Shown in pieces: positions 8,396 through 62,123 of a DNA stretch of 64,000 bases (position 1 is the stretch's first letter; each line of letters begins with the position of its first letter). A program made the position numbers and the translations under genes. Location of the stretch: assembly GCA_042563095.1 (NCBI GenBank), contig JBHPMS010000002.1:5551-69550 (forward strand), in the 5' to 3' direction. The notes beneath the pieces are model-generated. The model was not told where the DNA came from and ran no database searches. It saw only the letters and a list, made by a program, of their open reading frames with translations. The DNA is from Candidatus Margulisiibacteriota bacterium (lineage in GTDB: Bacteria; Margulisbacteria; WOR-1; XYC2-FULL-46-14).

Positions 8396-10293
8396 TGTTT
8401 CTTTCTGAGCCTGAGGCTTAAAGCCTCGGCCCCAATTAACAAAATAAATCCAACTATAACACCCAGAACCAATCCGTTAAAAGACCTGGCCAAAGAAATC
8501 ATTATTGGGGTGTGGATGTGGGTAAAGCTATTAATTAAAGTAATTGGTGCCAGTGTACCAACCATAATAAGCAGCCAGGTCCAGCGTTTTTCTTTCTTAT
8601 TCACCAACAGATAACTTGCGATAAAAAGTACGGGATAACCGATTAAAAACTCTTTAAAACGGGGCCTGACCAGAAAGATTTTTTCCAGAAGTGAGCGGAA
8701 AAATATTTCTTGCCTTAATACCGGCAGAATAAAATTACCGCTCCGGGCTACTATTATTAAAAGAATGAACGCTGCGGCTCCACCCCAGACCAGATATTTT
8801 GTTTTGATGGATGAGTTTAAATAGTAATTTATTTTCTCTTTTATCCCTTTTTTACCTAAAGTTTTATTATTTAAGATAAAATAGCCGGCAACAATCAGCA
8901 GCGGGGCAACCAGCGCCAGTTTAACACCAGAAAATTGGAAGGCTCCGAGCATAAAACGGGTATCCGCCAGTAAACCGATAATAATTACTGCTCCGAGCAG
9001 GGCCTCAACCGCAATATTAATGGTTAGCATTGCGGCAGACCAATACGCATTTTTTGGTTTTTTGGCCTTGCCTGCCGGCAGGCAGGGAGCACGCGCAAGA
9101 GTATGAATTACGGCTACGGCCGGAAACAATATTGCTGCTGCAAGAGATAAAGTTTTTTGCATTAATAGATCTGACCAGTGAAAATAGATTGCAAAAAGCG
9201 AGAGCAGCATCAGGCCTGTGGCATAGATTGTCTGCAATCCAATAAAAGAATCCACCAGTATTACCAACGCAACCGCAACCCCTAAACCGAGCAAAACAAT
9301 TTGCCAGTGGGTTAATCCCAGTTTAGATGGATAACTGGCTTCACCGATTAAAAACCCGGATTTTTTTATTCCAACAACTATTGATTTTATGTAATTAAGA
9401 TTTTCTTTTACTCCTTGATCAAGATACGGCCTGATGTAGAGCATCCTGATTGAGCGTTCTTTGACAGAACGGATAAAACGTTTGGATGCGGTGAGCGGTT
9501 CAACTTTTTTCAGCTCATCTTTAGCAATTCCGTGTACACGAATCAAATTTTGGCTCATCATTTTTTTTAGCCGGCTATTGCCAAATTGCTTAATTATCTC
9601 AACATAACCGTACTTAATACTGTTCTTTTTAAGCGCGTTAGCAAGCACACCTATTTTGTCAGGGTAGCCAGGCAGCTCTTCACCCTCAAAAATAATCGTT
9701 TTATATTGCGAAAAGATATTAATTTTTTTCGGTATGCTGTATTTAGGGTTGTTACTTAAACGCGGAATAATTTTAAAACTGCCCAGCTGTTCTACCGTTT
9801 TTTCTGAAAAACCGATTCCTAAATTGCGGATTTGGCTCTCTCTTTCGTTTACTTCAATAATATTCTGGCCGATAAACTTAATTTTTTTAATATCGTACAC
9901 AGCCAGGAGGTTTCTGATTACTCTTTTTCTTATCACAGAATCTTTTATAAAAAAGTAGGACTTATTTTTTTCTACCAGGCCACGCTGGTAATAATTTTTT
10001 AGATAGATCCCCCCTTTACCGGAAGAAAAGTAAAATTCTCCAGACGAAGTGGCGGTGGAGGGAGTTTGTTCAGAGAGCCCGATCGAAGTAACCCCAATTT
10101 CTTTTAATTCAAATAATAATTTGTCGAGCGGGTATCCTTCCCGGGCGGCCAAAGTTTCAAGGTCAGTGTAATCAACAACAATTTCAACAGTGTCATTTTT
10201 TTCTTCGATCTGTTGCCGCAACAGGCCCAGCCAGAAACCCTGTAACACTGCAATGGTTAATACGATACTTAGATAGAATTTAAGCTTTTGCAT
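8392..10293 (-). CDS. Large polytopic membrane protein (DUF5693-like?) of the CsaB/TagA envelope-polymer operon
   Basis: 633 aa with many TM segments in the C-terminal half. The family assignment is a recalled neighbourhood association, not verified. Confidence 0.4.
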   Translation of the reverse strand: MQKLKFYLSIVLTIAVLQGFWLGLLRQQIEEKNDTVEIVVDYTDLETLAAREGYPLDKLLFELKEIGVTSIGLSEQTPSTATSSGEFYFSSGKGGIYLKNYYQRGLVEKNKSYFFIKDSVIRKRVIRNLLAVYDIKKIKFIGQNIIEVNERESQIRNLGIGFSEKTVEQLGSFKIIPRLSNNPKYSIPKKINIFSQYKTIIFEGEELPGYPDKIGVLANALKKNSIKYGYVEIIKQFGNSRLKKMMSQNLIRVHGIAKDELKKVEPLTASKRFIRSVKERSIRMLYIRPYLDQGVKENLNYIKSIVVGIKKSGFLIGEASYPSKLGLTHWQIVLLGLGVAVALVILVDSFIGLQTIYATGLMLLSLFAIYFHWSDLLMQKTLSLAAAILFPAVAVIHTLARAPCLPAGKAKKPKNAYWSAAMLTINIAVEALLGAVIIIGLLADTRFMLGAFQFSGVKLALVAPLLIVAGYFILNNKTLGKKGIKEKINYYLNSSIKTKYLVWGGAAAFILLIIVARSGNFILPVLRQEIFFRSLLEKIFLVRPRFKEFLIGYPVLFIASYLLVNKKEKRWTWLLIMVGTLAPITLINSFTHIHTPIMISLARSFNGLVLGVIVGFILLIGAEALSLRLRKKQ

Positions 10294-15290: not shown

Positions 15291-15908
15291 ATGACGTGGG
15301 AAAGTTTAATGAATTTACTTGGCCAGGGTGAAGGACAATCACTTGAATTTGAAAAGCAAATTCCCCCTCCAGAAGATATTGCCCGTGAGATGGTCGCCTT
15401 TGCCAATGCAGATGGCGGCAAACTTGTTTATGGGATAGATGATAAAAACCAACACTTGATCGGAGTTGTATTGGGTGATGATTTTATAAAGGACATTAAG
15501 CGCTTGGGCGAAGAGGCTTGCATTCCCAAGCTTGTTCCTCAAATCGATATCTTTGAACATAACCAGAAGCGGGTGGTAATCATCACCATACCAGAAGGTG
15601 AAGAAAAACCATACCGCACAGATGACATTGCCTATATCAGGGATGGAGCGGTATCGCGTCCGGCCAAAGAAGATGAAGAGAAGCAGATAACTAATCCCTG
15701 GAGTGGTTATGGTTTAAATAAAAGACAGCTCCGGGCATTACAAATGATCAGTGAGCATGGAAATATAACAAATCGTGAATTCAGGGATGCGTTTAACGTT
15801 TCACATAAAACTGCGCATATCGAACTTACTATGCTGGTAGATAAAAAAATTGCTTTAACTTCTGGTTCGGGGCGGTCAACCTGCTACATCTTACCTTCAG
15901 GAGATTAG
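15291..15908 (+). CDS. AlbA_2/Schlafen-like putative DNA-binding regulator with C-terminal wHTH
   Basis: LEFEKQIP..IAREMVAFANADGGKLVYGIDDKN..IGVV matches the AlbA_2 signature. The C-terminal LRALQMISEHGNITNREFRDAFNVSHKTAHIEL is HTH-like. Confidence 0.55.
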   Translation: MTWESLMNLLGQGEGQSLEFEKQIPPPEDIAREMVAFANADGGKLVYGIDDKNQHLIGVVLGDDFIKDIKRLGEEACIPKLVPQIDIFEHNQKRVVIITIPEGEEKPYRTDDIAYIRDGAVSRPAKEDEEKQITNPWSGYGLNKRQLRALQMISEHGNITNREFRDAFNVSHKTAHIELTMLVDKKIALTSGSGRSTCYILPSGD

Positions 15909-19334: not shown

Positions 19335-20543
19335 ATGAAAGTAAAGTTTGAAGGGAAAGAGATTAATTTAAAAAGAATTGGAGTATTAACTGGCGGCGGT
19401 GATTGCGCCGGGCACAATGCGGTTATCTATGGATTGTTAAAGGGAATTAACAAAGCTAACCAGCTACTTCCAGATTCTGAAAAGATGGAGTTGCTTGGAT
19501 TAAAAGAAGGCTGGAAAGCGGTAACCAGAGATCCAGCTAAAGAACTTGATAAAATAGTCCAACCACTATCGACCGAAGATTTAAAAGATAGTTACAAAGT
19601 TTGCGGGACTATAATCAAATCATCCCGTACTAACCTATTTTCAAAAGCAAACCTTGAAGCCAGGGCTCCTGAAAAAGCGATGGAGAATTTGAAAAAGTTA
19701 AAAATTGATTGTCTGGTAGTTCTGGGTGGCGATGATACGCTCGGTGCTGCGGGAAAGATGGGAAAACAATTTACTTTTCCAATGCTGGGTGCTCCTAAGA
19801 CCATGGACAATGATGTTTTTGGGACCGAGCGGACCTATGGTTTTGATTCCGCAGTAAATGAAAGTGTTCATTTTATTGAAAATATCCAGACCACTGCACG
19901 TTCACACAACCGTTGTTTTGTGATCGAATTAATGGGGAGGCATGCTGGCTGGGTTGCTCTTCACGCTGGCATTGCTGGAGGAGCTGATATTGTGTTACTT
20001 CCAGAAGAAACTGTTGATATACGCAAAGTCATTAGGCAGGTTGAAAAAGCGATGGCTTACCAGAACCACTGTTTGGTGGTTGTTTCAGAGGGAGCTCATC
20101 TTTTTAACAAGAGTTATCCGAAAGATATAAATGATAGCAATAATGCTCTTTTAGATAAAGTTTTGGCTAATCCAAAGAATGCACTGGTCAAAGCCCGCCA
20201 TCAGTTACCAAAAAAACTAGATTCTTTTGGTAATGAGCAGTTAGGCGGCATTGGTGAATATATCTTTGCCCTGCTTTCTGAGCATACTAAAGGCATTGAA
20301 TACCGTCTTCAAAATTGCGGCCACGCTATCCGCGGCGGTGTTGCCCATATTGCGGATCGTTTACTCGGCCTTCGTTTTGGCGATGCTATTTTTAGCTTCA
20401 TAAAGGAAGGAAAATTCGGTGTCTACCCTGGCCTGCAGGCTGACAAGATTGTTGCCAATAATCTACTCGAAGTTAAAGGCGGCAAGTTTATTCCAGAAGA
20501 CGACCGGCTTTATCAGATCAGAAATGCGGTTGAGTTTTATTGA
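19335..20543 (+). CDS. pfp: Pyrophosphate-dependent phosphofructokinase (PPi-PFK)
   Basis: PFK fold with GGDDTLGAAGKM (Asp at the E. coli Gly104 position) and PKTMDNDV (Lys at the Gly124 position). This Asp/Lys pair is diagnostic of PPi-dependence. Confidence 0.7.
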   Translation: MKVKFEGKEINLKRIGVLTGGGDCAGHNAVIYGLLKGINKANQLLPDSEKMELLGLKEGWKAVTRDPAKELDKIVQPLSTEDLKDSYKVCGTIIKSSRTNLFSKANLEARAPEKAMENLKKLKIDCLVVLGGDDTLGAAGKMGKQFTFPMLGAPKTMDNDVFGTERTYGFDSAVNESVHFIENIQTTARSHNRCFVIELMGRHAGWVALHAGIAGGADIVLLPEETVDIRKVIRQVEKAMAYQNHCLVVVSEGAHLFNKSYPKDINDSNNALLDKVLANPKNALVKARHQLPKKLDSFGNEQLGGIGEYIFALLSEHTKGIEYRLQNCGHAIRGGVAHIADRLLGLRFGDAIFSFIKEGKFGVYPGLQADKIVANNLLEVKGGKFIPEDDRLYQIRNAVEFY

Positions 20544-20572
20544 TTGACAAACCTCAAAAAACGTAATACAAT
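20544..20572 (+). promoter_or_regulatory. Consensus sigma-70 promoter TTGACA-N17-TACAAT for vapBC
   Basis: TTGACA at 20544-20549, a 17-nt spacer, TACAAT at 20567-20572. Confidence 0.65.
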
Positions 20573-20576
20573 ACTC

Positions 20577-20586
20577 CTATCGATAG
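20577..20586. promoter_or_regulatory. Perfect 10-bp palindrome CTATCGATAG immediately downstream of the -10; candidate antitoxin operator
   Basis: Seen directly in the sequence. AbrB/VapB-type antitoxins autoregulate at palindromes overlapping their promoter. Confidence 0.5.
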
Positions 20587-20614
20587 CAATATCGTAAGAC
20601 ATGGGGGTATTAGC

Positions 20615-20821
20615 ATGGCAGAAGCAACTTTATCTTCAAAATTTCAATTAGTGATTCCGAAAGAAATCAGAGAAGAAACTGGTTTGAAGAAGGGAGAAAA
20701 AATATACATTTTACAAAAAAATGGGATTATCAATCTTGTTCCATCTCATTTACTTAAAAATATGAGGGGATATTTAAAAGGGATGGATATTTCAAATATT
20801 AGAGACGAGGATGATCGTTGA
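20615..20821 (+). CDS. vapB: AbrB/MazE/SpoVT-family antitoxin (VapB-like)
   Basis: 68 aa. SKFQLVIPKEIREETGLKKGEKI is a swapped-hairpin beta-barrel motif. It overlaps vapC by 4 nt. Confidence 0.7.
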   Translation: MAEATLSSKFQLVIPKEIREETGLKKGEKIYILQKNGIINLVPSHLLKNMRGYLKGMDISNIRDEDDR

Positions 20822-21189
20822 TGTTAGTTGATTCCTGCGGATGGTTAGAATACTTTACCGATGGAAAATTAGCAGGTCAATTCTATAAATATCTAAAAGA
20901 TCCTGAAGAAGTTATAACCTCAACTCTGGTTATGTATGAAATTTATAAGAAAATAAAAAATGAAAGATCTGAAGAAGATGCAATACATGCAATTGCACGA
21001 CTACAAGAAACCGAAGTTGTTCCGGTAAGCCAGTCAATTACTCTTTGGGCAGCGGACTTGAGCACAGAGTATAAAATTCCAATGGCCGATGCTATCATTT
21101 ACGCTACTGCTCTTTCCAATAATGTTGAAGTTGTTACATCTGATCAGCATTTTAAACACCTTCCGGAAGTAGTTTATTTGGGAAAATAG
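20818..21189 (+). CDS. vapC: PIN-domain toxin VapC
   Basis: 123 aa. MMLVDSCGWLEYF... with the acidic PIN residues (D5, E, D, D). Confidence 0.75.
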   Translation: MMLVDSCGWLEYFTDGKLAGQFYKYLKDPEEVITSTLVMYEIYKKIKNERSEEDAIHAIARLQETEVVPVSQSITLWAADLSTEYKIPMADAIIYATALSNNVEVVTSDQHFKHLPEVVYLGK

Positions 21190-21205
21190 ATGCGGTTGTG
21201 TTTTA

Positions 21206-22189
21206 TCAAATCGCCAGCATCTCCGCTAGCTTAATGTGCCTCAAATCAACTTTCATCTTAGTGCGAATTACTTTTGCAAAAGGAGTTTCAACCAGTTCTT
21301 CCGACTTTCCGCCGATCATAATGTTGTGGCAGCCATTTAATAAACATTCAACCGCTCTAGCCCCCATTTTACAGGCCAACTCGCGGGAGATTGCTGTCGG
21401 AGACCCTCCCCTTTGCATATGACCCAAAACAGAAATTTTAACATCTACCTTTTTGACTTTATTACGTAATTTTTCAGCAAACTTTTCGGCACTCATCACC
21501 CCTTCGGCCAGTACAATAATAAAACTGGCTTTCCCCCTCCTCTGCCCATCTTTAATCCTTTTTGCAATTTCTGAAAGATTAAACTTAACTTCTGGAATGA
21601 CAATGGCCTCGGCGCCGCAAACCAGGCCGACCTCCACTGCCAACAATCCTTTCCTCTTCCCCATTACCTCAACTACAAAAACCCGATTAAAAGCAGAAGC
21701 TGTGTCTCTGATTTTATCAATGGCGTCTACTGCAGTATTAACAGCAGTATCAAAACCGATCGTATAATCAGTGCAGCTGATATCATTATCTATACTTGCT
21801 GGAATGTGGATGACCGGGAGGTCGGTCTCTTTACTGACAACATTGGCTGCACGGAGTGATCCATCACCGCCGATAACGATCAAAGCGTCAATAAAGCGTT
21901 CTTTCAGGTTTTTATAGGCAACCTGGCGCATATTTTTATCACGAAATTCTTTGGTCCGATGGGAACCAAGAATTGTGCTTCCTTTATTGATTATTCCGCT
22001 AACAGATTTAATATTCATCTCGTCGATTTGACCAGTTATAAGCCCATGCCAGCCTTTTGATATCCCGTAGACTTTTAATTTATGATAGATTGCAGTTCTG
22101 ACCACTGCACGAATTGCAGTATTCATCCCCGGTGCATCCCCACCCGGAGTTACTAATCCGATAGTTTTTATTTTTTTCTTTTTTGTCAT
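21206..22189 (-). CDS. pfkA: ATP-dependent 6-phosphofructokinase
   Basis: 327 aa. GGDGSLRAA (Gly104) and PASIDND (no Lys at 124). Confidence 0.9.
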   Translation of the reverse strand: MTKKKKIKTIGLVTPGGDAPGMNTAIRAVVRTAIYHKLKVYGISKGWHGLITGQIDEMNIKSVSGIINKGSTILGSHRTKEFRDKNMRQVAYKNLKERFIDALIVIGGDGSLRAANVVSKETDLPVIHIPASIDNDISCTDYTIGFDTAVNTAVDAIDKIRDTASAFNRVFVVEVMGKRKGLLAVEVGLVCGAEAIVIPEVKFNLSEIAKRIKDGQRRGKASFIIVLAEGVMSAEKFAEKLRNKVKKVDVKISVLGHMQRGGSPTAISRELACKMGARAVECLLNGCHNIMIGGKSEELVETPFAKVIRTKMKVDLRHIKLAEMLAI

Positions 22190-49764: not shown

Positions 49765-50405
49765 AACCACTGGCTTATGAACTTAAATCCCAACCATTTA
49801 TGGACTTTGATTTTTATGTTGACCAGAATGTGCTTATCCCCCGGCCGGAAACTGAACAGTTAGTTGAAAAAGCAATCGAAGAAATTAAAAATTTAAAATT
49901 AAAAATTAAAAACTTGGAGCTATTAGATCTTGGGACTGGATCGGGCTGTATTGCGGTCTCACTGGCAAAGTATTTTTCACATGTTAAAATTACGGCGGTT
50001 GATTCATCGCCGGATGCGCTTGCTGTTGCCAGGAAGAATGCAAAAATCCATAACGTTTATGATCGGATTGAGTTTATAGAAGGCAACCTGCTCGAACCTC
50101 TGGCCGGCCGGAAGTTTGATCTAATTATCAGTAATCCACCCTATATCCCAAGTAAAGATATTGAAACACTTGATTCTGGCGTCAAAGAGTGGGAACCGCG
50201 AAAAGCATTGGACGGCGGTGTTGATGGATTAGACTATATTCGTAAGCTTATTCAAGAAGGACCGGAATATTTAAACCCGGGCGGCATGCTTATTTTTGAA
50301 ATGGGTTATGGGCAGGCTGAAGCTATACGACGGCTATGCCCGGGAGTGGAAATAATAAAAGACTATGCAGGAATCGATAGAATCGCAATTAAAAGAGTCA
50401 GTTAG
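49761..50405 (+). CDS. prmC: Release-factor glutamine N5-methyltransferase PrmC (short form)
   Basis: VLIPRPETE, DLGTGSGCIA and NPPY motifs. It is 214 aa and lacks the usual roughly 70-aa N-terminal domain. Confidence 0.8.
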   Translation: MKPLAYELKSQPFMDFDFYVDQNVLIPRPETEQLVEKAIEEIKNLKLKIKNLELLDLGTGSGCIAVSLAKYFSHVKITAVDSSPDALAVARKNAKIHNVYDRIEFIEGNLLEPLAGRKFDLIISNPPYIPSKDIETLDSGVKEWEPRKALDGGVDGLDYIRKLIQEGPEYLNPGGMLIFEMGYGQAEAIRRLCPGVEIIKDYAGIDRIAIKRVS

Positions 50406-50916
50406 GATATTAAAAACCGGAGGAGTGATTATTTTCCCAACTGACACAGTCTACGGCATTGGTTGTGCGTATGATAATAAAGCAGGGATTGAGCGAATTT
50501 ATGAGATAAAGAAAAGACCGAAATATAAACCACTACAGATATTAATTTCAGATATTAAACAACTCGATGCTCTGGCAGCCGAAATCCCGGCTGCAGCTCA
50601 AGAATTGATGGAGAAGTATTGGCCGGGAGCGTTGACCCTGATACTCAAGACTAAGGGCCAAAGACTAAACACAATCGGGATCAGGATGCCAAATCATCCT
50701 ATTCCTTTACAAATAATAAAAGAACTCGGGAAACCATTAGCGGCAACCTCGGCCAATCTTTCCGGAGAGCCAGATCCCTCCTCCCCGGCTGAGATAACAA
50801 TAAAGGCTGATTATTTAATTGATGCTGGAAAGATTGAAAATCCACAAGCCTCCTCGGTGATTGATGTGACCTGTAATCCTCCAAAAATCCTCAGAAAAGG
50901 CCGGATCAAAATTTAA
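50365..50916 (+). CDS. tsaC: L-threonylcarbamoyladenylate synthase TsaC/YrdC
   Basis: IIFPTDTVYGIGC...KYWPGALTLIL...TSANLSGEP. Confidence 0.8.
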   Translation: MQESIESQLKESVRILKTGGVIIFPTDTVYGIGCAYDNKAGIERIYEIKKRPKYKPLQILISDIKQLDALAAEIPAAAQELMEKYWPGALTLILKTKGQRLNTIGIRMPNHPIPLQIIKELGKPLAATSANLSGEPDPSSPAEITIKADYLIDAGKIENPQASSVIDVTCNPPKILRKGRIKI

Positions 50917-50917
50917 A

Positions 50918-51085
50918 CTGAAATTTTTAGATTTATAGCAAGATAAATATGCGGGAATGGAGAAGGAGAAAAGGGTTTAAATAAATGTTTGGAACTGGAC
51001 CAATAACGTTAGCTGCAAGAATAAAAAGCAGTATTTGCCATAGCAACTACAAAGAAGGCGCTGGGGCTAATCCTCCAAAGCAAGG
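50918..51085. repeat. Direct repeat copy 1 (promoter region + RBS + first 28 codons), near-identical to 52225..52392
   Basis: CAAGATAAATATGCGGGAATGGAGAAGGAGAAAAGGGTTTAAATAAATGTTTGGAACTGGACCAATAACGTTAGCTGCAAGAATAAAAAGCAGTATTTGCCATAGCAACTACAAAGAAGGCG... has only a few mismatches against copy 2. Confidence 0.85.
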
Positions 51086-51530
51086 ATATTCTCTTCAGAT
51101 TGAGCATATTGAAAGCTTACGAGGAAAAGACTTTAGATTTGACCAGCTACGCAGAACCGCACTGGCAGAACTTATTATTAAACGAACTTTGATAGTTGAT
51201 GATGATCTGCTCGTTAGCAAATCAACTATGAGAATATTGAAATTGATCCTAAAAGATGCAGAAGTTGAAATAATAACCTGCGATCAGAATGAAGTTGATG
51301 AACATCTTAAGACCCAATTCGATCTGTTAATTACTGATTACGAAATGCCTGGAATGAATGGAGATGAAGTGATTAGAAAATACAAGGAATCAGGACAGGG
51401 AGGACTTATAATTGGCCATAGCGGGGATAGTGACAATCTTGACTTTTTTTATAAGGCAGGAGCAGACCTGGCCGGCGTAAAACCACTTTCGGTTAGTTTT
51501 TGGAAAAAGATATTCGGGTCAAGAGATTAA
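50985..51530 (+). CDS. Single-domain response regulator (CheY-like REC) with a 70-aa N-terminal leader (gene A of the REC operon)
   Basis: REC residues are intact: LIVDDD, phospho-acceptor DLLITDYEMPGMNG, IIGHSGD and GVKP. The N-terminal MFGTGPITLAARIKSSICHSNYKEGAGA is shared with gene C. Confidence 0.7.
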   Translation: MFGTGPITLAARIKSSICHSNYKEGAGANPPKQGYSLQIEHIESLRGKDFRFDQLRRTALAELIIKRTLIVDDDLLVSKSTMRILKLILKDAEVEIITCDQNEVDEHLKTQFDLLITDYEMPGMNGDEVIRKYKESGQGGLIIGHSGDSDNLDFFYKAGADLAGVKPLSVSFWKKIFGSRD

Positions 51531-51535
51531 GGAAG

Positions 51536-52201
51536 ATGTTATTCATAAGCGGGATCAGATACGGAATAACTGCTCAAAGGGTTAAACTTAGTCTTTTTAA
51601 AACCAGTCATTATTGTCCTTCACAATACGATAAGTGGTCTTTTCTGGGCAAACGGCAGAAGGTAAACGGCACCAACCACTATGTTATAGACAATATTCCG
51701 TTATTTGCAGAAAACAGCCGGCAAACAATCAAACAAATATCCAGAGACTTGCTATGGAGAACAACGTTTTTACTCCACTGCCAAAAAAAACATTTTTTTA
51801 TTAATCAAGGAAAACTTACAAATAGCGGAAAATTTGAGCTAGCCAATAAAGCCGCTAATTTGTTTTGTCCCTTAAAAATACCAGGAATCCCAAAAAGCAG
51901 TTCAATTTCTGAAGTCATTGAGGAGTTGTCTGAAGGATTAGAGCGTCAAATTGAAGCAGAGATTTTCAATTATCTGCTTAAGAAATTTCGGACTGTTTTT
52001 GGGGAAAAAACAGAAATAAGTAATATTCTAGCAATTGAAAAGGATGAAAAAGATATTTACTTTCTTCTTGAATTATCTTCTGATAATAAGGGCCTCCATC
52101 AGCATCGTTTTAAACTGGGCAATAATCATGGAATATTTTTTAGACTAACCTTAAATGAACAAAATCATAGTCTGCGACTGGATCAGGATAAAAAAATCTA
52201 G
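51536..52201 (+). CDS. Hypothetical protein (gene B), no recognisable motifs
   Basis: ATG 6 nt after gene A's stop, with an AAGGAAG RBS. 221 aa. Confidence 0.45.
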   Translation: MLFISGIRYGITAQRVKLSLFKTSHYCPSQYDKWSFLGKRQKVNGTNHYVIDNIPLFAENSRQTIKQISRDLLWRTTFLLHCQKKHFFINQGKLTNSGKFELANKAANLFCPLKIPGIPKSSSISEVIEELSEGLERQIEAEIFNYLLKKFRTVFGEKTEISNILAIEKDEKDIYFLLELSSDNKGLHQHRFKLGNNHGIFFRLTLNEQNHSLRLDQDKKI

Positions 52202-52224
52202 TTTTTCTTTTCCACTGTTTTTAC

Positions 52225-52392
52225 CTGAAATTTTTCTGATTTGTACAAGATAAATATGCGGCAATGGAGAAGGAGAAAAGGGGGTTAAATAAATGTTCAG
52301 AACCGGACCAACAACGTTAGCTGCAAGAATAAAAAGCAGTATTTGCCATAGCAACTTCAAAGAAGGCGGTGGAGCTAAGCCTGCAGCAAGGG
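52225..52392. repeat. Direct repeat copy 2
   Basis: See copy 1. The offset is 1307-1308 bp. Confidence 0.85.
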
Positions 52393-53483
52393 TATTCTTG
52401 GCTGATGCACATGGCGGGTATGAAATCAAAAAGGCGGTCGTTCTGGATAATGAAGTTGCATTTCAATCCGAAGCGCGGAGTATTTTGGCCCCCTATATTA
52501 AAGTGAACTGTTATGACTGTGATGCTGTAATGGAGGCCGCTGAATCCGGAAAGTCTGAAAACTGTCTCTATTTTATTAGCATTGATTTATTACTCGAAAA
52601 AAAAATTAATCTCAGTAAAAAAATTAAAGAACTCCGTAAACATTGGGGAAATAGCTCATACCTCATTGGCTTATCATCACGCAGTCCCCAATCATTAACA
52701 AGAGAAATCATTAAAGCAGGTTTTGATAGAATTATTAAAAAAATTGATTTCTCACAATCTGTTAAAAATGCTTTAAAGAATTGCCATGTTATCGATATGG
52801 GAGGAATTACTCCTGATCAGGTAATTGAGGAGCCAGTTTTAGTAAGGCATGATTCGGCAGACCCCCCCAGCATCTTCGCACGACCGATTACAACAAAAGC
52901 CTGCCAAATAACAGCAAAACAAAAAGAAAACAAAACAGTATATTTATATAAACTGGCGAGCGAAAAGGGGAAAAGCAGCAAGGCAAATGCCCCGCCTCCT
53001 ATAGAGGGGACAGTAGAATTTGAAAAATATAGTTCGAATCATGGTCTGGCAAACCGAATTCTTATTATAAGCCCGCCATCCGATAATAATTTAAGAAAAC
53101 AACTTAAACGAAGGTTTTCATTTGAACTTGGGAAAACTTTAAATGAAATCACCTTAACCCTGCTTGATTCGGCGGAGGAGCAGAAAGTAAATATCGTTTA
53201 TACTAATACCACAGATGAGTTAACGGGAGTTGTTTATCAGTTATCTTATGAGGAACGGCTGCCTGAGGTAATATTTGTCTATTCTAACCCCACTGTCGAA
53301 ATAAGCGGAACAGAAATGGTTAAACGTATCCGTGAATTAAAGAAGGAATGTTATATAATTGGCGTTGCTAAATGTCAAACCGACCCGGTCAAATTTTACA
53401 ATGCTGGAGCAGACCAAACCATATTCGAAGATAAGCTGCCTGAATTTATTAGACGTTTCTTTGTTGAAAAAAAGGAAGAGTAA
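52293..53483 (+). CDS. Leader-REC-linker-pseudoREC protein (gene C)
   Basis: It has the same 28-aa N-terminus as gene A. The REC at about residues 45-165 is VVLDNE...YFISIDLLL...LSS...IIKKI. The C-terminal REC-like fold has Tyr in place of the acceptor Asp (EVIFVYSNPTVEISGTEMVKRIRE...FEDKLP). Confidence 0.6.
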   Translation: MFRTGPTTLAARIKSSICHSNFKEGGGAKPAARVFLADAHGGYEIKKAVVLDNEVAFQSEARSILAPYIKVNCYDCDAVMEAAESGKSENCLYFISIDLLLEKKINLSKKIKELRKHWGNSSYLIGLSSRSPQSLTREIIKAGFDRIIKKIDFSQSVKNALKNCHVIDMGGITPDQVIEEPVLVRHDSADPPSIFARPITTKACQITAKQKENKTVYLYKLASEKGKSSKANAPPPIEGTVEFEKYSSNHGLANRILIISPPSDNNLRKQLKRRFSFELGKTLNEITLTLLDSAEEQKVNIVYTNTTDELTGVVYQLSYEERLPEVIFVYSNPTVEISGTEMVKRIRELKKECYIIGVAKCQTDPVKFYNAGADQTIFEDKLPEFIRRFFVEKKEE

Positions 53484-53484
53484 T

Positions 53485-55062
53485 ATGCATTTAAGATTAG
53501 GAAAGGTTGTTAGAACAAGTGCTTTTTTTATACCTGCTGATGGGAATGGCGGGGAGTTTGGAAAGGGAGGATTAAAATCAACTAAACCTGCTCAGCTTCC
53601 CAGCGATGTAATTGTACCAATCAAATCAGAAGCCCATTCTGAGTTTGTTGACAGCCTTAGTATTACAGATGATATAACAAAATTACCAACTAAGGTCCTT
53701 CCCCTAGATATAAGAAATAACATTGCCAAAGAAGAATGTAATATTAGAAGGATAATACATCAAATAGTAACTGGATACTACTCGAATGAATCCTATTCTA
53801 CTATAAAGCACCTACTAGAATTGGGTGCCGGAAAAGATATATCAGATTTATTTGGAAGAATATCTATAACCAGAATAAACTATGGCCGTGTTGTAGGAGA
53901 TGTGGCTTTTTTACTTAACACTGCTGAGTGTGAAAAGATAATTGGGGCTGGCAAAGCAAAACTACAAAAAATGAGAGATGAATCGGAGATCAAGCTGAGA
54001 GCACAAGCAGCCAAGGTTTCCACTGCAGCGCCGTTTAAAACTAGAGTAGAAGAAATAATTCAATTCTGGCTGGATATCGGTAAACCACAAAATGTTTCAT
54101 TAATAAATAGCATTTTTAGCAATAATGATAAAGCTGCAGCAAAAAATGAGTTTATATTATTTTTAAAGAATGAAAAGATGCTCCGATTCCAAATAGAATT
54201 GGGTGCTGATCAAGAGAAATTCAATTGCTTTTCTAAACTTAATGATTTAGTAATAAGTTATGCCAGATGGATACAGGATCCAAAAAGTACCATACCCTAT
54301 ATCACAGCAACTATCGAACGAAGCCATTTCAGATGGGTACAAGGCCTTAAAAGCATCAAACCCAGTATTGAAGCTACAATTGGGCATTTTAAAGATTATT
54401 TCGATATGCTTGATAATTTGGTAGGCGAGAGCAAAAATAATTATAGTAATGAATTCGACAAAGAAGAGCTAGAACGTATTATAATTAATACCAAAATGGC
54501 CACAAAAACAATTTATCATTATTCTGCGAATGAAGACAAAGCCCGAATCGTTTCATTTCTAATGGACCACTTTTCTGCCAATTTTGGAAATAGAAAATCA
54601 GCCGACATCGCCCTGGAAATAGTGGAAGAGATCTCAAAACAAGAGCAAGCAACTGTTCTCAGCCACATTATTGACCACCTTGGTGATAGAAAGGATGACT
54701 TTGTAATTTTGCTAGCAAACATTGTAACCAGTAAAAACACAGACGTTTCTTCCCCTGCTATTACTAACATACTTGCCACAATAATTCCAATTCACCCAGA
54801 TACAGCGAAGGATTATTTGCGAATACTCTGTTCTAAGATATTTGGCCCAAATAGAATATTGGATTTTCTTGAAAACCAACACCCCCTTTTCTGGCAAAAT
54901 ATAATTGACAGATTAAAAAATGGAGACACCTGTGTTGTAGTTAAATATTTGCAAGCATTTCACACTAATTATCAAGAGCATTCAAACGAAGATAATAGTA
55001 CTACATATGCCGGTGTATTTAATCTGAATAAAAAGGATTATATAACTATAATAAGAGGTTAA
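53485..55062 (+). CDS. Hypothetical 525-aa protein (gene D), predicted all-alpha, no motifs
   Basis: ATG 1 nt after gene C's stop with an AAAGGAAG RBS. The track ORF starts upstream in another part of gene C. Confidence 0.45.
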   Translation: MHLRLGKVVRTSAFFIPADGNGGEFGKGGLKSTKPAQLPSDVIVPIKSEAHSEFVDSLSITDDITKLPTKVLPLDIRNNIAKEECNIRRIIHQIVTGYYSNESYSTIKHLLELGAGKDISDLFGRISITRINYGRVVGDVAFLLNTAECEKIIGAGKAKLQKMRDESEIKLRAQAAKVSTAAPFKTRVEEIIQFWLDIGKPQNVSLINSIFSNNDKAAAKNEFILFLKNEKMLRFQIELGADQEKFNCFSKLNDLVISYARWIQDPKSTIPYITATIERSHFRWVQGLKSIKPSIEATIGHFKDYFDMLDNLVGESKNNYSNEFDKEELERIIINTKMATKTIYHYSANEDKARIVSFLMDHFSANFGNRKSADIALEIVEEISKQEQATVLSHIIDHLGDRKDDFVILLANIVTSKNTDVSSPAITNILATIIPIHPDTAKDYLRILCSKIFGPNRILDFLENQHPLFWQNIIDRLKNGDTCVVVKYLQAFHTNYQEHSNEDNSTTYAGVFNLNKKDYITIIRG

Positions 55063-55065
55063 ACC

Positions 55066-56703
55066 ATGTCTATTCATAGAATATATAGATCACCAAGATG
55101 CAGGGATACAAGGGAACTGGTTGCTCCGCGGCATATGGAGGCAAGATTAACAAGAGATGATTTATTTAAAAGCAGTGGATTAGTGGCGGCCAGAGACGAT
55201 AATGATTTATCTGGTGGGATTGCCAACACTAACCCACTCACTCTATTATTAAGAGTTAAGAATCGTCATCTTCTAATAAATGATATTTTAGTTTATAGCG
55301 GCGATGAGAGTTTTTGCAATGTCACAAACATGGTGTTGCAAGAATTAAAAGAAAGGCATAATTTTGGTTATAAATTTAAAGTTGTAAATGATAGCATAAG
55401 TGCGCTTGATTACCTCAAAAAACCAACAGGTGACAGGCCGGACCTGATTATCTGCGGCGATGATGAGTTGGGATCTATTTCTTATTGTCTGGGGCCACCT
55501 ACTCAAAGGCCCTGCATCATCTGTTGCGTTGATGATTTAATGAATGTTTCATCGCAGAAAAGTAATGAATTACAAAATGAGGGAGTTGTATTGCCGATTA
55601 ACCAAGACCATCTGCCTTTATATATTGTCAATGCATTTAGACAGCAATACCATGCTGGACCAGAAAATTCAGCAACTCAAACGTTAGATAATCCTGGTTT
55701 TGATGTTACTGTTGATACACCTATAAACGGGAAGCCAGAATCCCTTGTTGATATGAGAACCGGAAAATTTAGAAATATCCTGGTAATAAGTAGAGACATC
55801 CCACTAATAGAATCAATTAGAAGCAACTTGAGGTCCACCCGGCCTCGCATTCAATCCACACAAAATAATAGGATTCCTTTGATCGACCAGGCAGCTGCTG
55901 CTCTTTTTCTTGATGAGCCTGACCTGGTATTAGTTGATTTACAAAATCCAGATGCGATTGACATAATCGAAAAACTAAGGTCAATAGAGAATCTTTTTAT
56001 AAAAAGCCAACGCAAATTTTGGCTGGGTGGCATTAGCAAAACAGGGCTGAGTCAAGAGGCAAAGGTAAATCTATCGCAATTAAGTGATTCAATAAATTTT
56101 ATTTATGAGGAACCCCGGTTTGGCTCGGATCTTTTTCGCACCCTTACCGAATCAGATAGTTTATTTAAAAGATCAACCAGCAAGGAATTGGCCGCCATTG
56201 GAACAAACCAGGTTTTGATCAGTGAATCTTATCATAAACCGGAACGCCCAGAAAAAGTTAGAAATATTTTAATGGTTACTAATATTTATGATCAACATTC
56301 AATCTCGCATATAAAAAATATCTTTAACAAGCTAAAAAAAGAATTTGTAATTAACTCATTATTTAATGTTGACTCACAAATCATTCTAGGTAAAGAACAA
56401 AAAATGATTGAATTAAGCACTACCGGTCAGTCTGATTCTGCAGTCAATATTTACACGGTATATTTAAAACAATTTAAGGACTTTGCTTTGGCCAGAATCC
56501 ATAGATATATTACTGCATATGTGAGGGGTCTTGAAATTGATATGATATTTATGCAGGATAAGACTTTTGCTGAATTACTTAGAAAAAAGGAAAATTATCG
56601 GGGCTATATTATTGATACCTCTAATGAAGTCCAGAATGCTGATTTTGACTGTGCAATAACATCAAATCCAGCTTTATTTCTAAAAGTTTTATTTATAGCC
56701 TAA
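55066..56703 (+). CDS. Protein with two degenerate REC-like domains plus an unknown 200-aa C-terminal domain (gene E)
   Basis: REC-like 1 is HLLINDILVY...RPDLIICGDDELGS. REC-like 2 is NILVISRDIP...PDLVLVDLQNPDAIDIIEKLRSIE. It has no HK, Hpt or DNA-binding motif. Confidence 0.45.
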   Translation: MSIHRIYRSPRCRDTRELVAPRHMEARLTRDDLFKSSGLVAARDDNDLSGGIANTNPLTLLLRVKNRHLLINDILVYSGDESFCNVTNMVLQELKERHNFGYKFKVVNDSISALDYLKKPTGDRPDLIICGDDELGSISYCLGPPTQRPCIICCVDDLMNVSSQKSNELQNEGVVLPINQDHLPLYIVNAFRQQYHAGPENSATQTLDNPGFDVTVDTPINGKPESLVDMRTGKFRNILVISRDIPLIESIRSNLRSTRPRIQSTQNNRIPLIDQAAAALFLDEPDLVLVDLQNPDAIDIIEKLRSIENLFIKSQRKFWLGGISKTGLSQEAKVNLSQLSDSINFIYEEPRFGSDLFRTLTESDSLFKRSTSKELAAIGTNQVLISESYHKPERPEKVRNILMVTNIYDQHSISHIKNIFNKLKKEFVINSLFNVDSQIILGKEQKMIELSTTGQSDSAVNIYTVYLKQFKDFALARIHRYITAYVRGLEIDMIFMQDKTFAELLRKKENYRGYIIDTSNEVQNADFDCAITSNPALFLKVLFIA

Positions 56704-56727
56704 AAACTCACCGCAACTTCGTAAAAT
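56699..56727. repeat. Left 29-bp direct repeat flanking the AbiE cassette (relic of the OMP 3' end, encoding FYEVAVSF*)
   Basis: CCTAAAAACTCACCGCAACTTCGTAAAAT versus CCTAAAAACTCAACGCCACCTCGTAGAAT at 58057..58085 (25/29 identical). Confidence 0.75.
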
Positions 56728-56729
56728 AA

Positions 56730-57431
56730 TTATTCGCTATCCCTCATCAATTTGAGCAGAAAAATCGTCTCATCTAAAAGCTTTTGCTTAACCCAGACTT
56801 TCTGCTTTTTATCTAACAGCTCACCAATACCGGATAAAATATTACGGCTGCTCATTTTGGAGAGTAGGTCAATGCATTCTTCAAGAAACTTTTTAAAAGT
56901 CTTTTTTACACGTTGTTCTACCAGTTCTTTGTTAATCGGCCAATTGTTATTGAAGAAAAACCAGACATCATAAATATCGCGGTTGGTCCTTCCAATCCTC
57001 TCATACATCGCAACCAATTTCTGAGCCGCCATATCCGGTTTGACCATTACCTTCATCGAAATACCAAGATAGGCCTTAACTTCATAACTTGATCCAAAGG
57101 CTCTGCGGTTTATCTCAACTTTAATATTCTGCGCGCCTTTTTCTTTATCTTTATAAGAGAGCAGAAAAAAAAGATTAAACCTTTTCTTTTCTGCTTTTTT
57201 TACGGAGCCGTAGCTTTCCAAAATCTTTCTGATCCGCTCAAAGATAACCTGCTCCCTACCCTTATCCAGCAGATCAAAATCAAGATCGACCGAAAAGCGG
57301 CTGAGATTATAAAAAAGATATGCAGCTGTGCCTCCCTTAAAACCCAAAAGCGGACCAACTGTTGTGTCAGTAAAAATATCTTTTAGGATCCTGATCAGAA
57401 GATTTTTATGCTTTGATATATCAAGTGACAT
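56730..57431 (-). CDS. abiEii: Nucleotidyltransferase toxin AbiEii (DUF1814)
   Basis: LLGFKGGTAAYLFYNLSRFSVDLDFD, a polymerase-beta-like NTase motif. Confidence 0.8.
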   Translation of the reverse strand: MSLDISKHKNLLIRILKDIFTDTTVGPLLGFKGGTAAYLFYNLSRFSVDLDFDLLDKGREQVIFERIRKILESYGSVKKAEKKRFNLFFLLSYKDKEKGAQNIKVEINRRAFGSSYEVKAYLGISMKVMVKPDMAAQKLVAMYERIGRTNRDIYDVWFFFNNNWPINKELVEQRVKKTFKKFLEECIDLLSKMSSRNILSGIGELLDKKQKVWVKQKLLDETIFLLKLMRDSE

Positions 57432-57996
57432 TTTTTTGATACCTACTAACTATTTGAGCCATACGTTTGTTGCCATCGTAGGTCGGCAGAATTTCTTGTA
57501 CCCGCTCCCAATTTATAGCTGAAAGATTATCAAAGTGATAATCCTGATTCAAATAAAGTAGATCCAAAAACGCCCTCTCCGAAGACGCAATGCTGTAGTT
57601 ATCCATTATCTTGATGCCAGCACTATTTGTTAATATCGGAGCTTTAACCGTCTTATAGTTGTAAGTCTGTCCGTCACAAACAATGTCCTTAGACTGATAT
57701 GAAGCCACAAATATTTGGCTGTAATATTGGAAAATAATGCCGGCCTTTGTTAAAACAGTCTCAAAACTTATATATGATGGTGTATATATTTTGGTGGCAA
57801 GCTCGAATTTATCATATTTTTTATCTTTTGCATACAATCCCCGCCGAATAGAATAAAGACCACCGTGTTTTGTGTAGTAATTTGCTCTGGCCTTTGCTGT
57901 TTTTTTATCGATATTCCCCCAAAGTAAAATGAGGTCCTTAAAAGAAAAAACAGTTTTATCTGACCTTAATAATTGGTTTAAAAATCCTCTTTCCAT
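57421..57996 (-). CDS. abiEi: AbiEi-like antitoxin/transcriptional regulator
   Basis: 191 aa, immediately upstream of and overlapping AbiEii. The size and arrangement are typical of type IV AbiE. Confidence 0.65.
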   Translation of the reverse strand: MERGFLNQLLRSDKTVFSFKDLILLWGNIDKKTAKARANYYTKHGGLYSIRRGLYAKDKKYDKFELATKIYTPSYISFETVLTKAGIIFQYYSQIFVASYQSKDIVCDGQTYNYKTVKAPILTNSAGIKIMDNYSIASSERAFLDLLYLNQDYHFDNLSAINWERVQEILPTYDGNKRMAQIVSRYQKNVT

Positions 57997-58002
57997 GATT
58001 TA

Positions 58003-58039
58003 AGAGTCAAAGGTAAGGAATATTCTTACCTTTGGCTCT
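58003..58039. promoter_or_regulatory. Inverted repeat AGAGTCAAAGGTAAGG-AATATT-CCTTACCTTTGGCTCT directly upstream of abiEi (candidate operator and bidirectional terminator)
   Basis: 14-15 bp arms with one mismatch. AbiEi-family antitoxins bind inverted repeats in their own promoter. Confidence 0.45.
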
Positions 58040-58056
58040 TATTATACCATATTAAC

Positions 58057-58085
58057 CCTAAAAACTCAACGCCACCTCGTAGAAT
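58057..58085. repeat. Right 29-bp direct repeat (authentic OMP 3' end)
   Basis: See 56699..56727. Confidence 0.75.
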
Positions 58086-59212
58086 TGAGTCTCCTCCACC
58101 TGCCCCGTAGCCGGATTATAAGCTTTGCGATAATGCGTAATTACTTTTGTAAACGGATTGACGTAATAACCGATCTTGGCACCCATCACCGCCCCATTTT
58201 CTAAGGTTAAAGAATTAAAATCAACAAAGTTTGGCTGCTGATAATAAGCGGACACTTCGATATCTTCTCTTAAATACGATTCAGCCAGTGCTGCAATTGC
58301 ACCATTGCCCCCATTATAGTTTTCATAAGAAATGTCTAAGTTCAATACTTTTGGCAGCTTTGCTTTAAAATCAGCAAAATAACCATCACGGCGAATACCC
58401 TGGGCGGCAACTGAACTTATGTCGGTCGGATTGATCTCATATTCCTCATTAAAATAACCAGGAACAAAATTCCCTCCCACAAAACGGTATCCAGTATCAA
58501 ATGCAGCAACAAAGCCGAGCATTTGGGTTGACCAATCAATACCAACTGAAGCTGCTTTCCCGTGATTATTTAACTGAGCCGCCTCAGCATAACCTTCAAA
58601 CCCAAAAGGAAATGGGACCGTAGCATCAACTGCAATTCCTCCCTGTGGAGCGAAACTTCTGATTGTACCATCCGATTGTCTAACTTGTACACCATCCTCA
58701 TCAGTTACAAATGATTGACCTAAAATTAACATCGGATGGACTCTTTGCGTTAGACGGATTGCATAAACATGTGACCAGGTGTTCATAGCATGAAATCCGA
58801 AAATATTGTGGTTATAATAGCCTTTTAATCCCATCTGGTCATTATAACTAAGGCCAGGTAATGCAACTCGAGTAGCATAATTTTTCATCAACAAACCGTG
58901 CCCCAGAGTAATCCGATCCAGTATTCCATAACGCAAACCTTTCTGCCCATCATCATATTCGGCATAACGGAATACAACCGATTCATAATCTGCTGGGCGG
59001 ACATTTCCAAGCGGAACATTAACATCCAATCCTAAACCCAACGGACCAAGCTTGAGGTCCGGCCGCCATGACAAACTGCCTACCTCAACTGTTCCAGCTT
59101 TTACATACCCTGCACTAACGGTATTAGAAACTTTGTCAAACATACCAGCTTCGGCTGAAAATGACCAAGATGCAAGAAACAAGATACAAATAATTACCAA
59201 TATATTTTTCAT
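58058..59212 (-). CDS. Outer-membrane beta-barrel protein (porin-like), signal peptide and C-terminal Phe
   Basis: MKNILVIICILFLASWSFSAEA signal peptide, alternating amphipathic strands, and the protein ends ...YEVALSF. Confidence 0.55.
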   Translation of the reverse strand: MKNILVIICILFLASWSFSAEAGMFDKVSNTVSAGYVKAGTVEVGSLSWRPDLKLGPLGLGLDVNVPLGNVRPADYESVVFRYAEYDDGQKGLRYGILDRITLGHGLLMKNYATRVALPGLSYNDQMGLKGYYNHNIFGFHAMNTWSHVYAIRLTQRVHPMLILGQSFVTDEDGVQVRQSDGTIRSFAPQGGIAVDATVPFPFGFEGYAEAAQLNNHGKAASVGIDWSTQMLGFVAAFDTGYRFVGGNFVPGYFNEEYEINPTDISSVAAQGIRRDGYFADFKAKLPKVLNLDISYENYNGGNGAIAALAESYLREDIEVSAYYQQPNFVDFNSLTLENGAVMGAKIGYYVNPFTKVITHYRKAYNPATGQVEETQFYEVALSF

Positions 59213-61466: not shown

Positions 61467-62123
61467 TTACTTCCTCGCAATAATCAACATCTGTTTACCC
61501 AGCAGCTTCCACAACAATGGGAAGCTAAGGTACAACTTCAACAATTCAGTTGATTTAGGCACAGAGCTCTTGGTTGTATACGGTAAAAAGCGGTCGATCA
61601 CTTTTTCTAGCTTAAAACCGACTGACATTAAAGCCTCAGAAACACTTTTATGGCTGAGCGGGATAAAATGATCAAAAAAATCCCAATATTCTTTAAACGC
61701 ATATTTGATATTAGGTTGGATAATAATGACTTTCCCCTTATCTTTTATTTTCTGGTAAGCAAAGTTCAATGTTTTATAGATCTCTTCAACGTTCTTTAAA
61801 TGCTCCAAAAAATTACTCATAAACACCACGTCAACCGAATTATTATTAAATTTTTCTATTTCAGATGACGTTGAGTTTATAAACTCAACGCTACCATTTG
61901 CATATTTCTGGCATTCGTCATTAAGGTCAACCGCAATCTTTTTTTTTGCCTCAATATTATTAATAAAATTACACTGCCCGGCCCCAATGTCAACTACGGT
62001 TGAACCAGGGTCAATATGCTGTTGCAGATATTCTTTACATAAAACCTTCCAGAGCTTATCTTTTGCTTCAACCTCACTCTCTGAAAAGCGGTTTGAATAT
62101 AGTTTTTTGTACTCTGGTTCCAT
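61467..62123 (-). CDS. Class I SAM-dependent methyltransferase embedded in the pur operon
   Basis: VVDIGAGQCNF motif I, and DVVFMSNFLEHL. Confidence 0.7.
   Translation of the reverse strand: MEPEYKKLYSNRFSESEVEAKDKLWKVLCKEYLQQHIDPGSTVVDIGAGQCNFINNIEAKKKIAVDLNDECQKYANGSVEFINSTSSEIEKFNNNSVDVVFMSNFLEHLKNVEEIYKTLNFAYQKIKDKGKVIIIQPNIKYAFKEYWDFFDHFIPLSHKSVSEALMSVGFKLEKVIDRFLPYTTKSSVPKSTELLKLYLSFPLLWKLLGKQMLIIARK

Follow-up and report, generated by a model that had tools for sequence, protein, structure and literature searches.

Integrative and conjugative elements (ICEs) of the ICESt1/ICESt3 type, which target the genes fda, rpsI and rpmG, and the cis-mobilizable elements (CIMEs and microCIMEs) are flanked by direct repeats taken from the 3' end of the target gene, which is kept intact; at fda the repeat has 27 bp. 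CIMEs may contain only about 1 kb of cargo, or a few hundred bp without any gene, and have no recombinase in cis (PMC7563491). Here we describe a similar arrangement in a 64-kb window (the whole stretch of DNA analysed) from a metagenome-assembled genome of Candidatus Margulisiibacteriota: a two-gene AbiE toxin-antitoxin (TA) cassette stands between two copies of the end of a gene for an outer-membrane protein (OMP). The cassette is not an isolated case: the insertion footprint recurs in this uncultivated phylum and is targeted by sequence. As in CIMEs, the cassette has att-like repeats (25/29 identical) with only abiEi and abiEii between them. However no cognate ICE or integrative and mobilizable element with an integrase was found at the OMP end, either in about 66 OMP loci or in the window; this is a limited survey, in which absence is no proof. 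There are other differences from CIMEs: the host belongs to an uncultivated phylum, the targets are porin-like OMP and phosphofructokinase (PFK) genes and the cassettes are minimal single operons.

Other described systems share part of this anatomy. Members of the IS1202 family duplicate 16–17 or 27–28 bp of their target, have terminal inverted repeats of 23–26 bp and a DDE transposase. The repeats found here are also long (17 bp at the PFK gene; 29, about 25 and 29 bp at OMP genes), but the coding cassettes have no terminal inverted repeats and the window has no transposase. Integron cassettes are compact one-operon units, with the recombination site right after the cargo stop and a recombinase encoded outside; the cassettes described here are equally compact and would also be moved by a recombinase from outside. 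TA cassettes in chromosomal superintegrons carry their own promoters. The 7-mer GTTGAGT fits the integron core GTTRRRY, which is the only such resemblance. However there is no intI or attI, and no attC-like palindrome or inverse core was seen by eye, a dedicated attC search not having been made. Furthermore, the insertion of an integron cassette does not duplicate 17–29 bp of a host gene, unlike what we find. The modules known as IMEX (integrative mobile elements exploiting Xer) and the dif modules of Acinetobacter are free of recombinase, often bear TA genes, have flanking sites of about 28 bp and are moved by a host recombinase; the AbiE cassette is similar to them as a recombinase-free TA module with repeats of comparable size. 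A dif/Xer site was rejected: on inspection the repeats do not have the 11-6-11 dyad, they lie inside coding ends, and the GC skew of the window tracks gene orientation only, with no replication-terminus signal. The footprint most resembles elements which target gene 3' ends, yet it does not qualify as a CIME (for want of a cognate element), an integron cassette, an IS1202-type element or a Xer module.

Defence and TA genes often lie in chromosomal hotspots without a recognisable mobile element. In hotspot #37 of E. coli, 68% of the occupied sites have no detectable mobile element, and similar hotspots of Pseudomonas show no identifiable mode of mobilisation (PMC10121019). In the case presented here the insertion footprint is still legible and gives a testable handle: a target motif, the boundaries of the cassettes and the predicted circle and empty-site junctions. 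The place where the main cassette is found, the junction between the OMP gene and tsaC, is a variable spot throughout the phylum, a little-studied sister lineage of Cyanobacteria.

An AbiE cassette between two copies of an OMP gene end

The two direct repeats, CCTAAAAACTCACCGCAACTTCGTAAAAT at 56699–56727 and CCTAAAAACTCAACGCCACCTCGTAGAAT at 58057–58085, are identical in 25 of 29 positions and lie 1,358 bp apart from start to start, exactly where the original prediction had placed them. Their interpretation also stands. The right copy, read on the minus strand, is the genuine 3' end of the OMP gene (…QFYEVALSF*), whereas the left copy reads FYEVAVSF* and is a pseudo-end; in its CTAA the pseudo-stop overlaps the true stop of gene E, which converges on the OMP gene. 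The longest identical run is 12–15 nt. By chance, a sequence in the 8 kb downstream would match the OMP end in 23 or more of 27 positions only 2e-6 times, and 2,000 shuffles never gave such a match. When the window is searched with a degenerate pattern of the repeat, only these two copies appear, with 0 expected. The gene-proximal copy holds the 10-mer GTTGAGTTTT (58061–58070) and a −35-like TTGAGT.

The cargo is, judging by its sequence, a complete AbiEi/AbiEii system, as had been predicted: both PADLOC models were matched. The gene abiEi is directly upstream of abiEii in a bicistronic arrangement and overlaps it by 11 nt. AbiE systems (type IV TA, abortive infection) described before (PMC3985639) likewise have this gene organization, a toxin of the DUF1814 family and inverted repeats at their promoter; in its sequence the cargo has nothing unusual. 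The closest AbiEii homologues are 72% identical and come from the candidate phyla radiation (CPR) and other phyla. No plasmid copies of the cassette were found. In the 61-nt leader we find the best promoter-like site of the region, with a TG extension. Directly after its −10-like box there is a 17-bp inverted repeat (58001–58017 / 58025–58041), the presumed operator of AbiEi. Its position at the promoter matches the known autoregulation of abiE by AbiEi, which acts through inverted repeats (PMC7319586). The cassette has no terminal inverted repeats, and the abiEii stop is only 2 nt from the distal repeat. We have not detected any integrase, transposase or recombinase domain in the open reading frames (ORFs) of at least 120 aa of the window, which upholds the description of the cassette as a module without integrase. 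Nor did we find Rfam families or tRNAs near the cassette.

The junction was compared in 67 loci, which a search with the OMP protein gave in collections of genomes (2) and metagenomes (65); extra loci around the closest OMP homologues were added by direct look-up. The statistics of the junction rest on 45 distinct OMP loci, and each locus was scanned for another copy of its own OMP end. The gene order is conserved: purM-purN-purH-OMP faces tsaC/Sua5-prmC-prfA-rpmE. In about 28 of the 45 loci the OMP stop touches or overlaps that of its convergent neighbour, which is tsaC/Sua5 or a REC gene (gap from −11 to +124 nt), and in the other 17 there is extra DNA of 0.4–7 kb. In L078, the closest relative (OMP 59% identical), the stops overlap by 4 nt. 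Gene E overlaps the pseudo-stop in the same way, just as native convergent neighbours often do in the relatives.

Insert-free loci never have a second OMP end. Since second copies occur only beside inserts, the left repeat is not a conserved terminator which was already there before the cassette. The comparison with an empty site, which had been proposed as a check, could be carried out in part: insert-free junctions were found at the level of the family (in L078 and in most loci), but no strict empty site with gene E. Neither a genome with a homologue of gene E nor a relative closer than L078 turned up. These insert-free junctions, together with the recurrence described in the next section, support the insertion of the cassette at the OMP stop with a duplication of about 29 bp.

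Recurrence of the footprint at other gene ends

A similar duplication is found at OMP genes of two other lineages, whose proteins are 45–51% identical to the OMP of the window. In contig SDBU01000082 (L033) the ends …YYELRMSF* and KYELRMSF*, 22/27 identical, flank an insert of 692 bp with a single ORF6N gene, which matches the PADLOC candidate PDC-S05 at 9e-55. In Saganbacteria (L099 and L100) a 29-nt repeat, 23/29 identical, is found around a non-coding insert of 646 bp. This insert (L099 5150–5797; also in L100 and L101) contains units of GTAG plus a hairpin, similar to repetitive extragenic palindromic (REP) sequences, in both orientations. It also has an exact direct repeat of 60 nt at a distance of 395 nt and subterminal inverted repeats of 30 nt, placed 20 nt from each end. 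The L099 pseudo-end overlaps the Sua5 stop and carries an in-frame stop; its own stop has been lost through a change that is silent in the Sua5 frame overlapping it. Each of the three OMP duplications runs from codon −8/−7 to one nucleotide after the stop. A scan of 293 kb with the peptide motif of second OMP ends gave two matches on the same strand and none on the control strand.

The window itself has another case, a VapBC-type cassette with a strong promoter of its own, placed after the gene PFK1 in a convergent pair of PFK genes (Table 1). Its distal repeat reaches 1 nt into the stop (21206–21208) of the convergent gene PFK2 (21206..22189, minus strand). This locus is absent from all the loci of relatives that were fetched. 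We scanned 870 ORF ends, from the window and all loci, with the control strand alongside: the direct matches which score at least 15 are the four repeat-flanked cases and one chance match inside a gene for a REP-associated tyrosine transposase (RAYT). The 10-mer GTTGAGTTTT occurs exactly twice in the window, counting both strands, namely in the gene-proximal repeats of OMP and PFK1. Among the 1,891 pairs of ORF 3' ends within the window only the pair OMP/PFK1 shares a 10-mer. The L033 repeat shares the 8-mer TGAGTTTT, and the L099 repeat has neither form of the motif.

Over the four cases the repeats have 17 bp (PFK) and about 25, 29 and 29 bp (OMP). In the three coding cassettes the cargo stop is always found 0–2 nt from the distal repeat. 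The AbiE, VapBC and ORF6N cassettes have no terminal sequences in common and no terminal inverted repeats, the inverted-repeat scores of 4–7 being at background level; the repeat is thus the sole boundary feature which they share. Insertions of this anatomy have arisen independently at least four times, in three OMP lineages and at one PFK gene, and their targets are related in sequence, with a preference for both site and motif.

The cargo does not explain the footprint. AbiE cassettes which are 70–72% identical are found in defence islands of CPR (L068–L077) without flanking repeats, and the same is true for the ORF6N genes of other Margulisbacteria (L082, L090 and L093). The footprint as a property of the cargo is ruled out by these homologues: it belongs to the site. 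Since the cassettes do not share their ends either, what they have in common is the target and its repeat. The same cassette with the same flanks, which the original prediction proposed to search for, has not turned up elsewhere; homologous AbiE cassettes do exist, none of them with flanking repeats. In one of the contigs just mentioned (L090 948–3516) two ORF6N genes belong to one operon, where they closely follow yraN and comM; their start and stop codons abut or overlap, and flanking repeats are absent.

The copies can be distinguished by their residues. Among 120 OMP homologues position −3 holds L, F, I or M, with V in a single one; the distal copy has V. At position −3 of PFK the homologues have a conserved acidic residue, D or E, and the distal copy again has V. 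Since the atypical residues sit in the distal copies, these are duplicates in decay, and the functional ends are the gene-proximal ones. The two youngest pairs (window OMP and L033) have seven differences, all of them upstream of an identical T-rich core; six are synonymous third-position changes, including TAG vs TAA. The functional ends of these two genes (window 58058–58085; L033 9147–9173) have a G+C content at third codon positions (GC3) of 0.75, vs 0.33 and 0.39 gene-wide, the largest excess of the 45 loci, while their pseudo-ends have a host-like GC3 of 0.375. Such a pattern of differences fits either AT-biased decay of the relic or copies which diverged as alleles in related strains.

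The GC3 excess had raised the idea that the functional end is foreign and the relic original. It is weakened by the atypical residues of the relics and by lineage-specific residues which are present in both copies, namely F at −8 together with A at −4 for the window and M at −3 for L033. A separate observation in L033 is a perfect 20-nt palindrome, AGTGTCGTAATTACGACACT (9172–9191), which starts within the OMP stop TAG; the relic has TAA, so that one of the differences between copies extends the palindrome.

Table 1. Main features of the AbiE and VapBC loci in the 64-kb window
Feature	Position	Strand	Description
OMP gene-proximal repeat	58057..58085	-	Real OMP 3' end: codons -8 to -1, stop TAG and 1 nt more
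OMP distal repeat	56699..56727	-	OMP pseudo-end FYEVAVSF*, 25/29 vs functional end
Inserted AbiE cassette, 1,329 bp	56728..58056	-	Leader with promoter and putative operator, abiEi, abiEii
abiEi, 191 aa	57421..57996	-	Predicted antitoxin and autorepressor; PADLOC PDLC02255, 2.1e-59
abiEii, 233 aa	56730..57431	-	Predicted DUF1814 nucleotidyltransferase toxin; Pfam PF08843 5.1e-20; PADLOC PDLC02324 2.9e-76, full length
Promoter-like site TTGAGT-17-TATAAT	58069..58041	-	-35 within OMP end, -10 within cassette
PFK1 gene-proximal repeat ATGCGGTTGAGTTTTAT	20524..20540	+	Last 5.7 codons of PFK1 (19335..20543), 17 nt before stop; holds GTTGAGTTTT
VapBC-type cassette, 649 bp	20541..21189	+	Promoter, MazE/AbrB-type antitoxin, PIN toxin
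VapBC promoter TTGACA-17-TACAAT	20544-20572	+	
MazE/AbrB-type antitoxin	20615..20821	+	
PIN toxin	20818..21189	+	
PFK distal repeat ATGCGGTTGTGTTTTAT	21190..21206	+	16/17 identical; begins at the base right after PIN stop
Porin-like beta-barrel OMP gene	58058..59212	-	Last of purM-purN-purH-OMP cluster; conserved in Margulisiibacteriota
Gene E, 545 aa	55066..56703	+	No family match; convergent on OMP gene
tsaC/Sua5	50365..50916	+	Faces OMP gene directly in most of the phylum

Possible mechanisms of insertion

The AbiE operon is best explained as a horizontally acquired and self-regulated TA (abortive-infection) cassette, inserted at the overlapping stops of the OMP gene and gene E. For the way of insertion we favour, at about even odds, a circular cassette which a recombinase acting in trans would integrate. 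The cassette would exist as a circle which carries one copy of the gene-end segment. A single reciprocal crossover (Campbell-type) inside this segment would integrate the circle, catalysed by a recombinase encoded elsewhere which would recognise the T-rich core. The gene-proximal copy keeps the terminal beta-strand of the OMP intact and supplies the cassette with the −35 of its predicted promoter. The distal copy retains the gene E stop and is otherwise a decaying relic. Afterwards TA addiction would guard the repeat-flanked insert against loss by recombination between the repeats, a plausible reason for such footprints to persist around TA and defence cargo.

Integration of a circle would account for several features: the variable length of the repeats (17–29 nt), the repeat as sole shared boundary, the identical T-rich core with differences upstream of it and the compact cassettes. 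It would also account for OMP repeats which stop at the gene end, as expected of an element that restores the gene. Integrative elements directed at gene 3' ends, and the integrase-less CIMEs derived from them, follow the same logic (PMC7563491). A broader version is doubtful, although it deserves to be stated: in Margulisiibacteriota a recombinase or integrase encoded elsewhere would recognise a short T-rich, GTTGAGTTTT-like motif at 3' ends in convergent gene pairs, where promoter-bearing TA or defence cassettes would be inserted with duplication of 17–29 bp of the gene end, by a pathway which has not been described. If true, such an "integron without an integron" would account for the arrival of defence genes in hotspots without mobile elements, and it may extend to other uncultivated phyla.

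Several observations weigh against circle integration. We have identified no recombinase anywhere, and the approximately 66 OMP loci gave neither a circular form nor a strict empty site nor a parent element with an integrase. On inspection the repeats do not have the dyad symmetry typical of tyrosine-recombinase core sites. The repeats copy each lineage's own gene end, so that the circle would need to gain its att copy within each lineage; a target-duplicating insertion explains such lineage-matched repeats more simply. The PFK repeat is near the top of the chance distribution, its score being 15 as compared with 16 for the chance match and 18 for a match on the control strand. The excess of synonymous differences is only moderately significant (P between about 1e-4 and 2e-2 according to the model used). 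In each of the six synonymous differences the gene has G/C and the relic A/T (P about 0.03, calculated by hand), a direction which could reflect simple AT-biased decay of the relic. In the oldest pair (L099) we find ordinary decay.

Duplication of the target site would arise if a transposase or integrase working in trans, with an IS1202-like or a Cas1/casposase-like ruler, made staggered cuts 17–29 nt apart at a preferred motif, later filled in. It is a parsimonious account of repeats which copy the local sequence at four independent sites and of distal copies which look like decaying duplicates. Both size classes of the IS1202 family (16–17 and 27–28 bp) are represented here, and the L099 insert has its subterminal inverted repeats 20 nt from each end. 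But in the three coding cassettes an enzyme would find neither terminal inverted repeats nor shared ends to recognise, and the window has no transposase. The length of the duplication differs at one site (25 vs 29), and there is no reason why a staggered cut should end one nucleotide after the stop in three lineages. We regard target-site duplication as unlikely, though as the main competitor. One-off illegitimate recombination would require no dedicated machinery: DNA might be captured by end joining at a staggered break or brought in from a related donor with the help of homology. No enzyme has been found, and the junction generally receives unrelated genes that have no repeats. Four events with the same anatomy are hard to reconcile with it, as three of them duplicate the same 25–29 nt of OMP in lineages whose OMPs are only 45–51% identical to that of the window and both sites in one genome share a unique 10-mer; such an origin is improbable.

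The footprint might also be a decayed remnant similar to a CIME, where a larger integrase-bearing element at the OMP 3' end suffered deletions which left the cargo between attL and attR. Integrase-less elements of 1.2–13 kb and gene-free ones of 130–220 bp are common in streptococci (PMC7563491), and the sizes found here (0.65–1.3 kb) fit. Yet the survey of about 66 loci gave no integrase-bearing element at this site; the cassettes are minimal, without gene fragments, and a cargo stop placed at 0–2 nt from the distal repeat in three of three cases is not what random deletion would be likely to produce. We give this explanation little credit. An origin of the left copy before the cassette, as a terminator or regulatory element, as the relic of a tandem OMP paralogue, by chance or through an assembly artefact, is very improbable. 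OMP C-termini are conserved and similar peptides could recur, but nothing specific speaks for it; the absence of second copies from insert-free loci, the chance expectation given above and the empty control strand in 293 kb all go against it. A longest identical run of 12–15 nt is too short to mislead an assembler, and no tandem OMP is found in about 62 loci, which eliminates a paralogue relic.

Other candidates were also rejected. No tRNA or non-coding RNA was found that could be the target. A scan of viral contigs for a phage or other attP, using the degenerate repeat pattern, gave two matches, both due to chance and inside phage genes. A diversity-generating retroelement does not fit either: the differences between copies are C/T, G/A, G/T and T/G, not confined to adenine, and the window has no reverse transcriptase.

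The OMP gene and the variable region around it

The OMP protein belongs to no Pfam family, although more than 130 homologues were found among Margulisiibacteriota, Saganbacteria and WOR-1. Its AlphaFold model is all-beta, with about 23 strands, an N-terminal signal helix and a pLDDT of 83. Foldseek matches the model only with outer-membrane beta-barrels (AlgE, MOMP, OccK, OmpM1), with E about 1e-6 and TM scores of merely 0.33–0.40. The signal helix, the all-beta model and the exclusive matches to such barrels justify the label of predicted outer-membrane beta-barrel. The duplicated segment encodes the last beta-strand, which is conserved as …YYExxLSF, with the terminal aromatic residue of such barrels.

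Since Sua5 is the gene at 50365..50916, the region from 50917 to 58057 is entirely within the variable space between OMP and tsaC. Across loci the inserts in this junction include genes with REC domains, PMT_2 glycosyltransferases, a pabB-like gene, an IS30 element and a HepT-MNT pair. Three of the junction cargos are TA or candidate-defence genes, and the junction often takes unrelated genes without flanking repeats. The original prediction saw here a variable spot or defence island which might include the adjacent REC operon. The variability of the OMP junction is confirmed; the REC genes are neither a mobile nor a defence island, since REC1 (50985..51530) has homologues at the same position in L002, L003 and L012 and no protein of the REC cluster has a PADLOC match.

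Other features were observed in these regions. Two segments of about 170 bp, 83–90% identical, form a direct repeat in the window (50912–51077 / 52219–52385); they cover the upstream region and the first 30 codons of the REC genes 50985..51530 and 52293..53483, which suggests a local duplication inside the REC cluster after tsaC. The HepT-MNT pair (L049 4899–5526) occupies the OMP/tsaC junction with reversed orientation; its HepT stop overlaps that of the OMP gene, and the locus lacks a pseudo-end. A different insertion is found between purN and purH in a Margulisbacteria contig (L061 3170–4993), with repeats and an ORF of 158 aa which, judged by eye, looks like a REP-associated transposase (IS200-like, Y1).

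Two other genes of the window, a Schlafen gene (15291..15908) and a methyltransferase gene (61467..62123), show no significant flanking repeats. The first one, with a Schlafen/AlbA_2 domain, is wedged among housekeeping genes and overlaps the 3' end of iPGM by 12 nt. The second one interrupts purM-purN and contains a perfect 22-nt palindrome, CGTTGAGTTTATAAACTCAACG (61868–61889); its half-site is the motif GTTGAGTTT, which is present in both cassette repeats, and the 9-mer occurs four times in the window.

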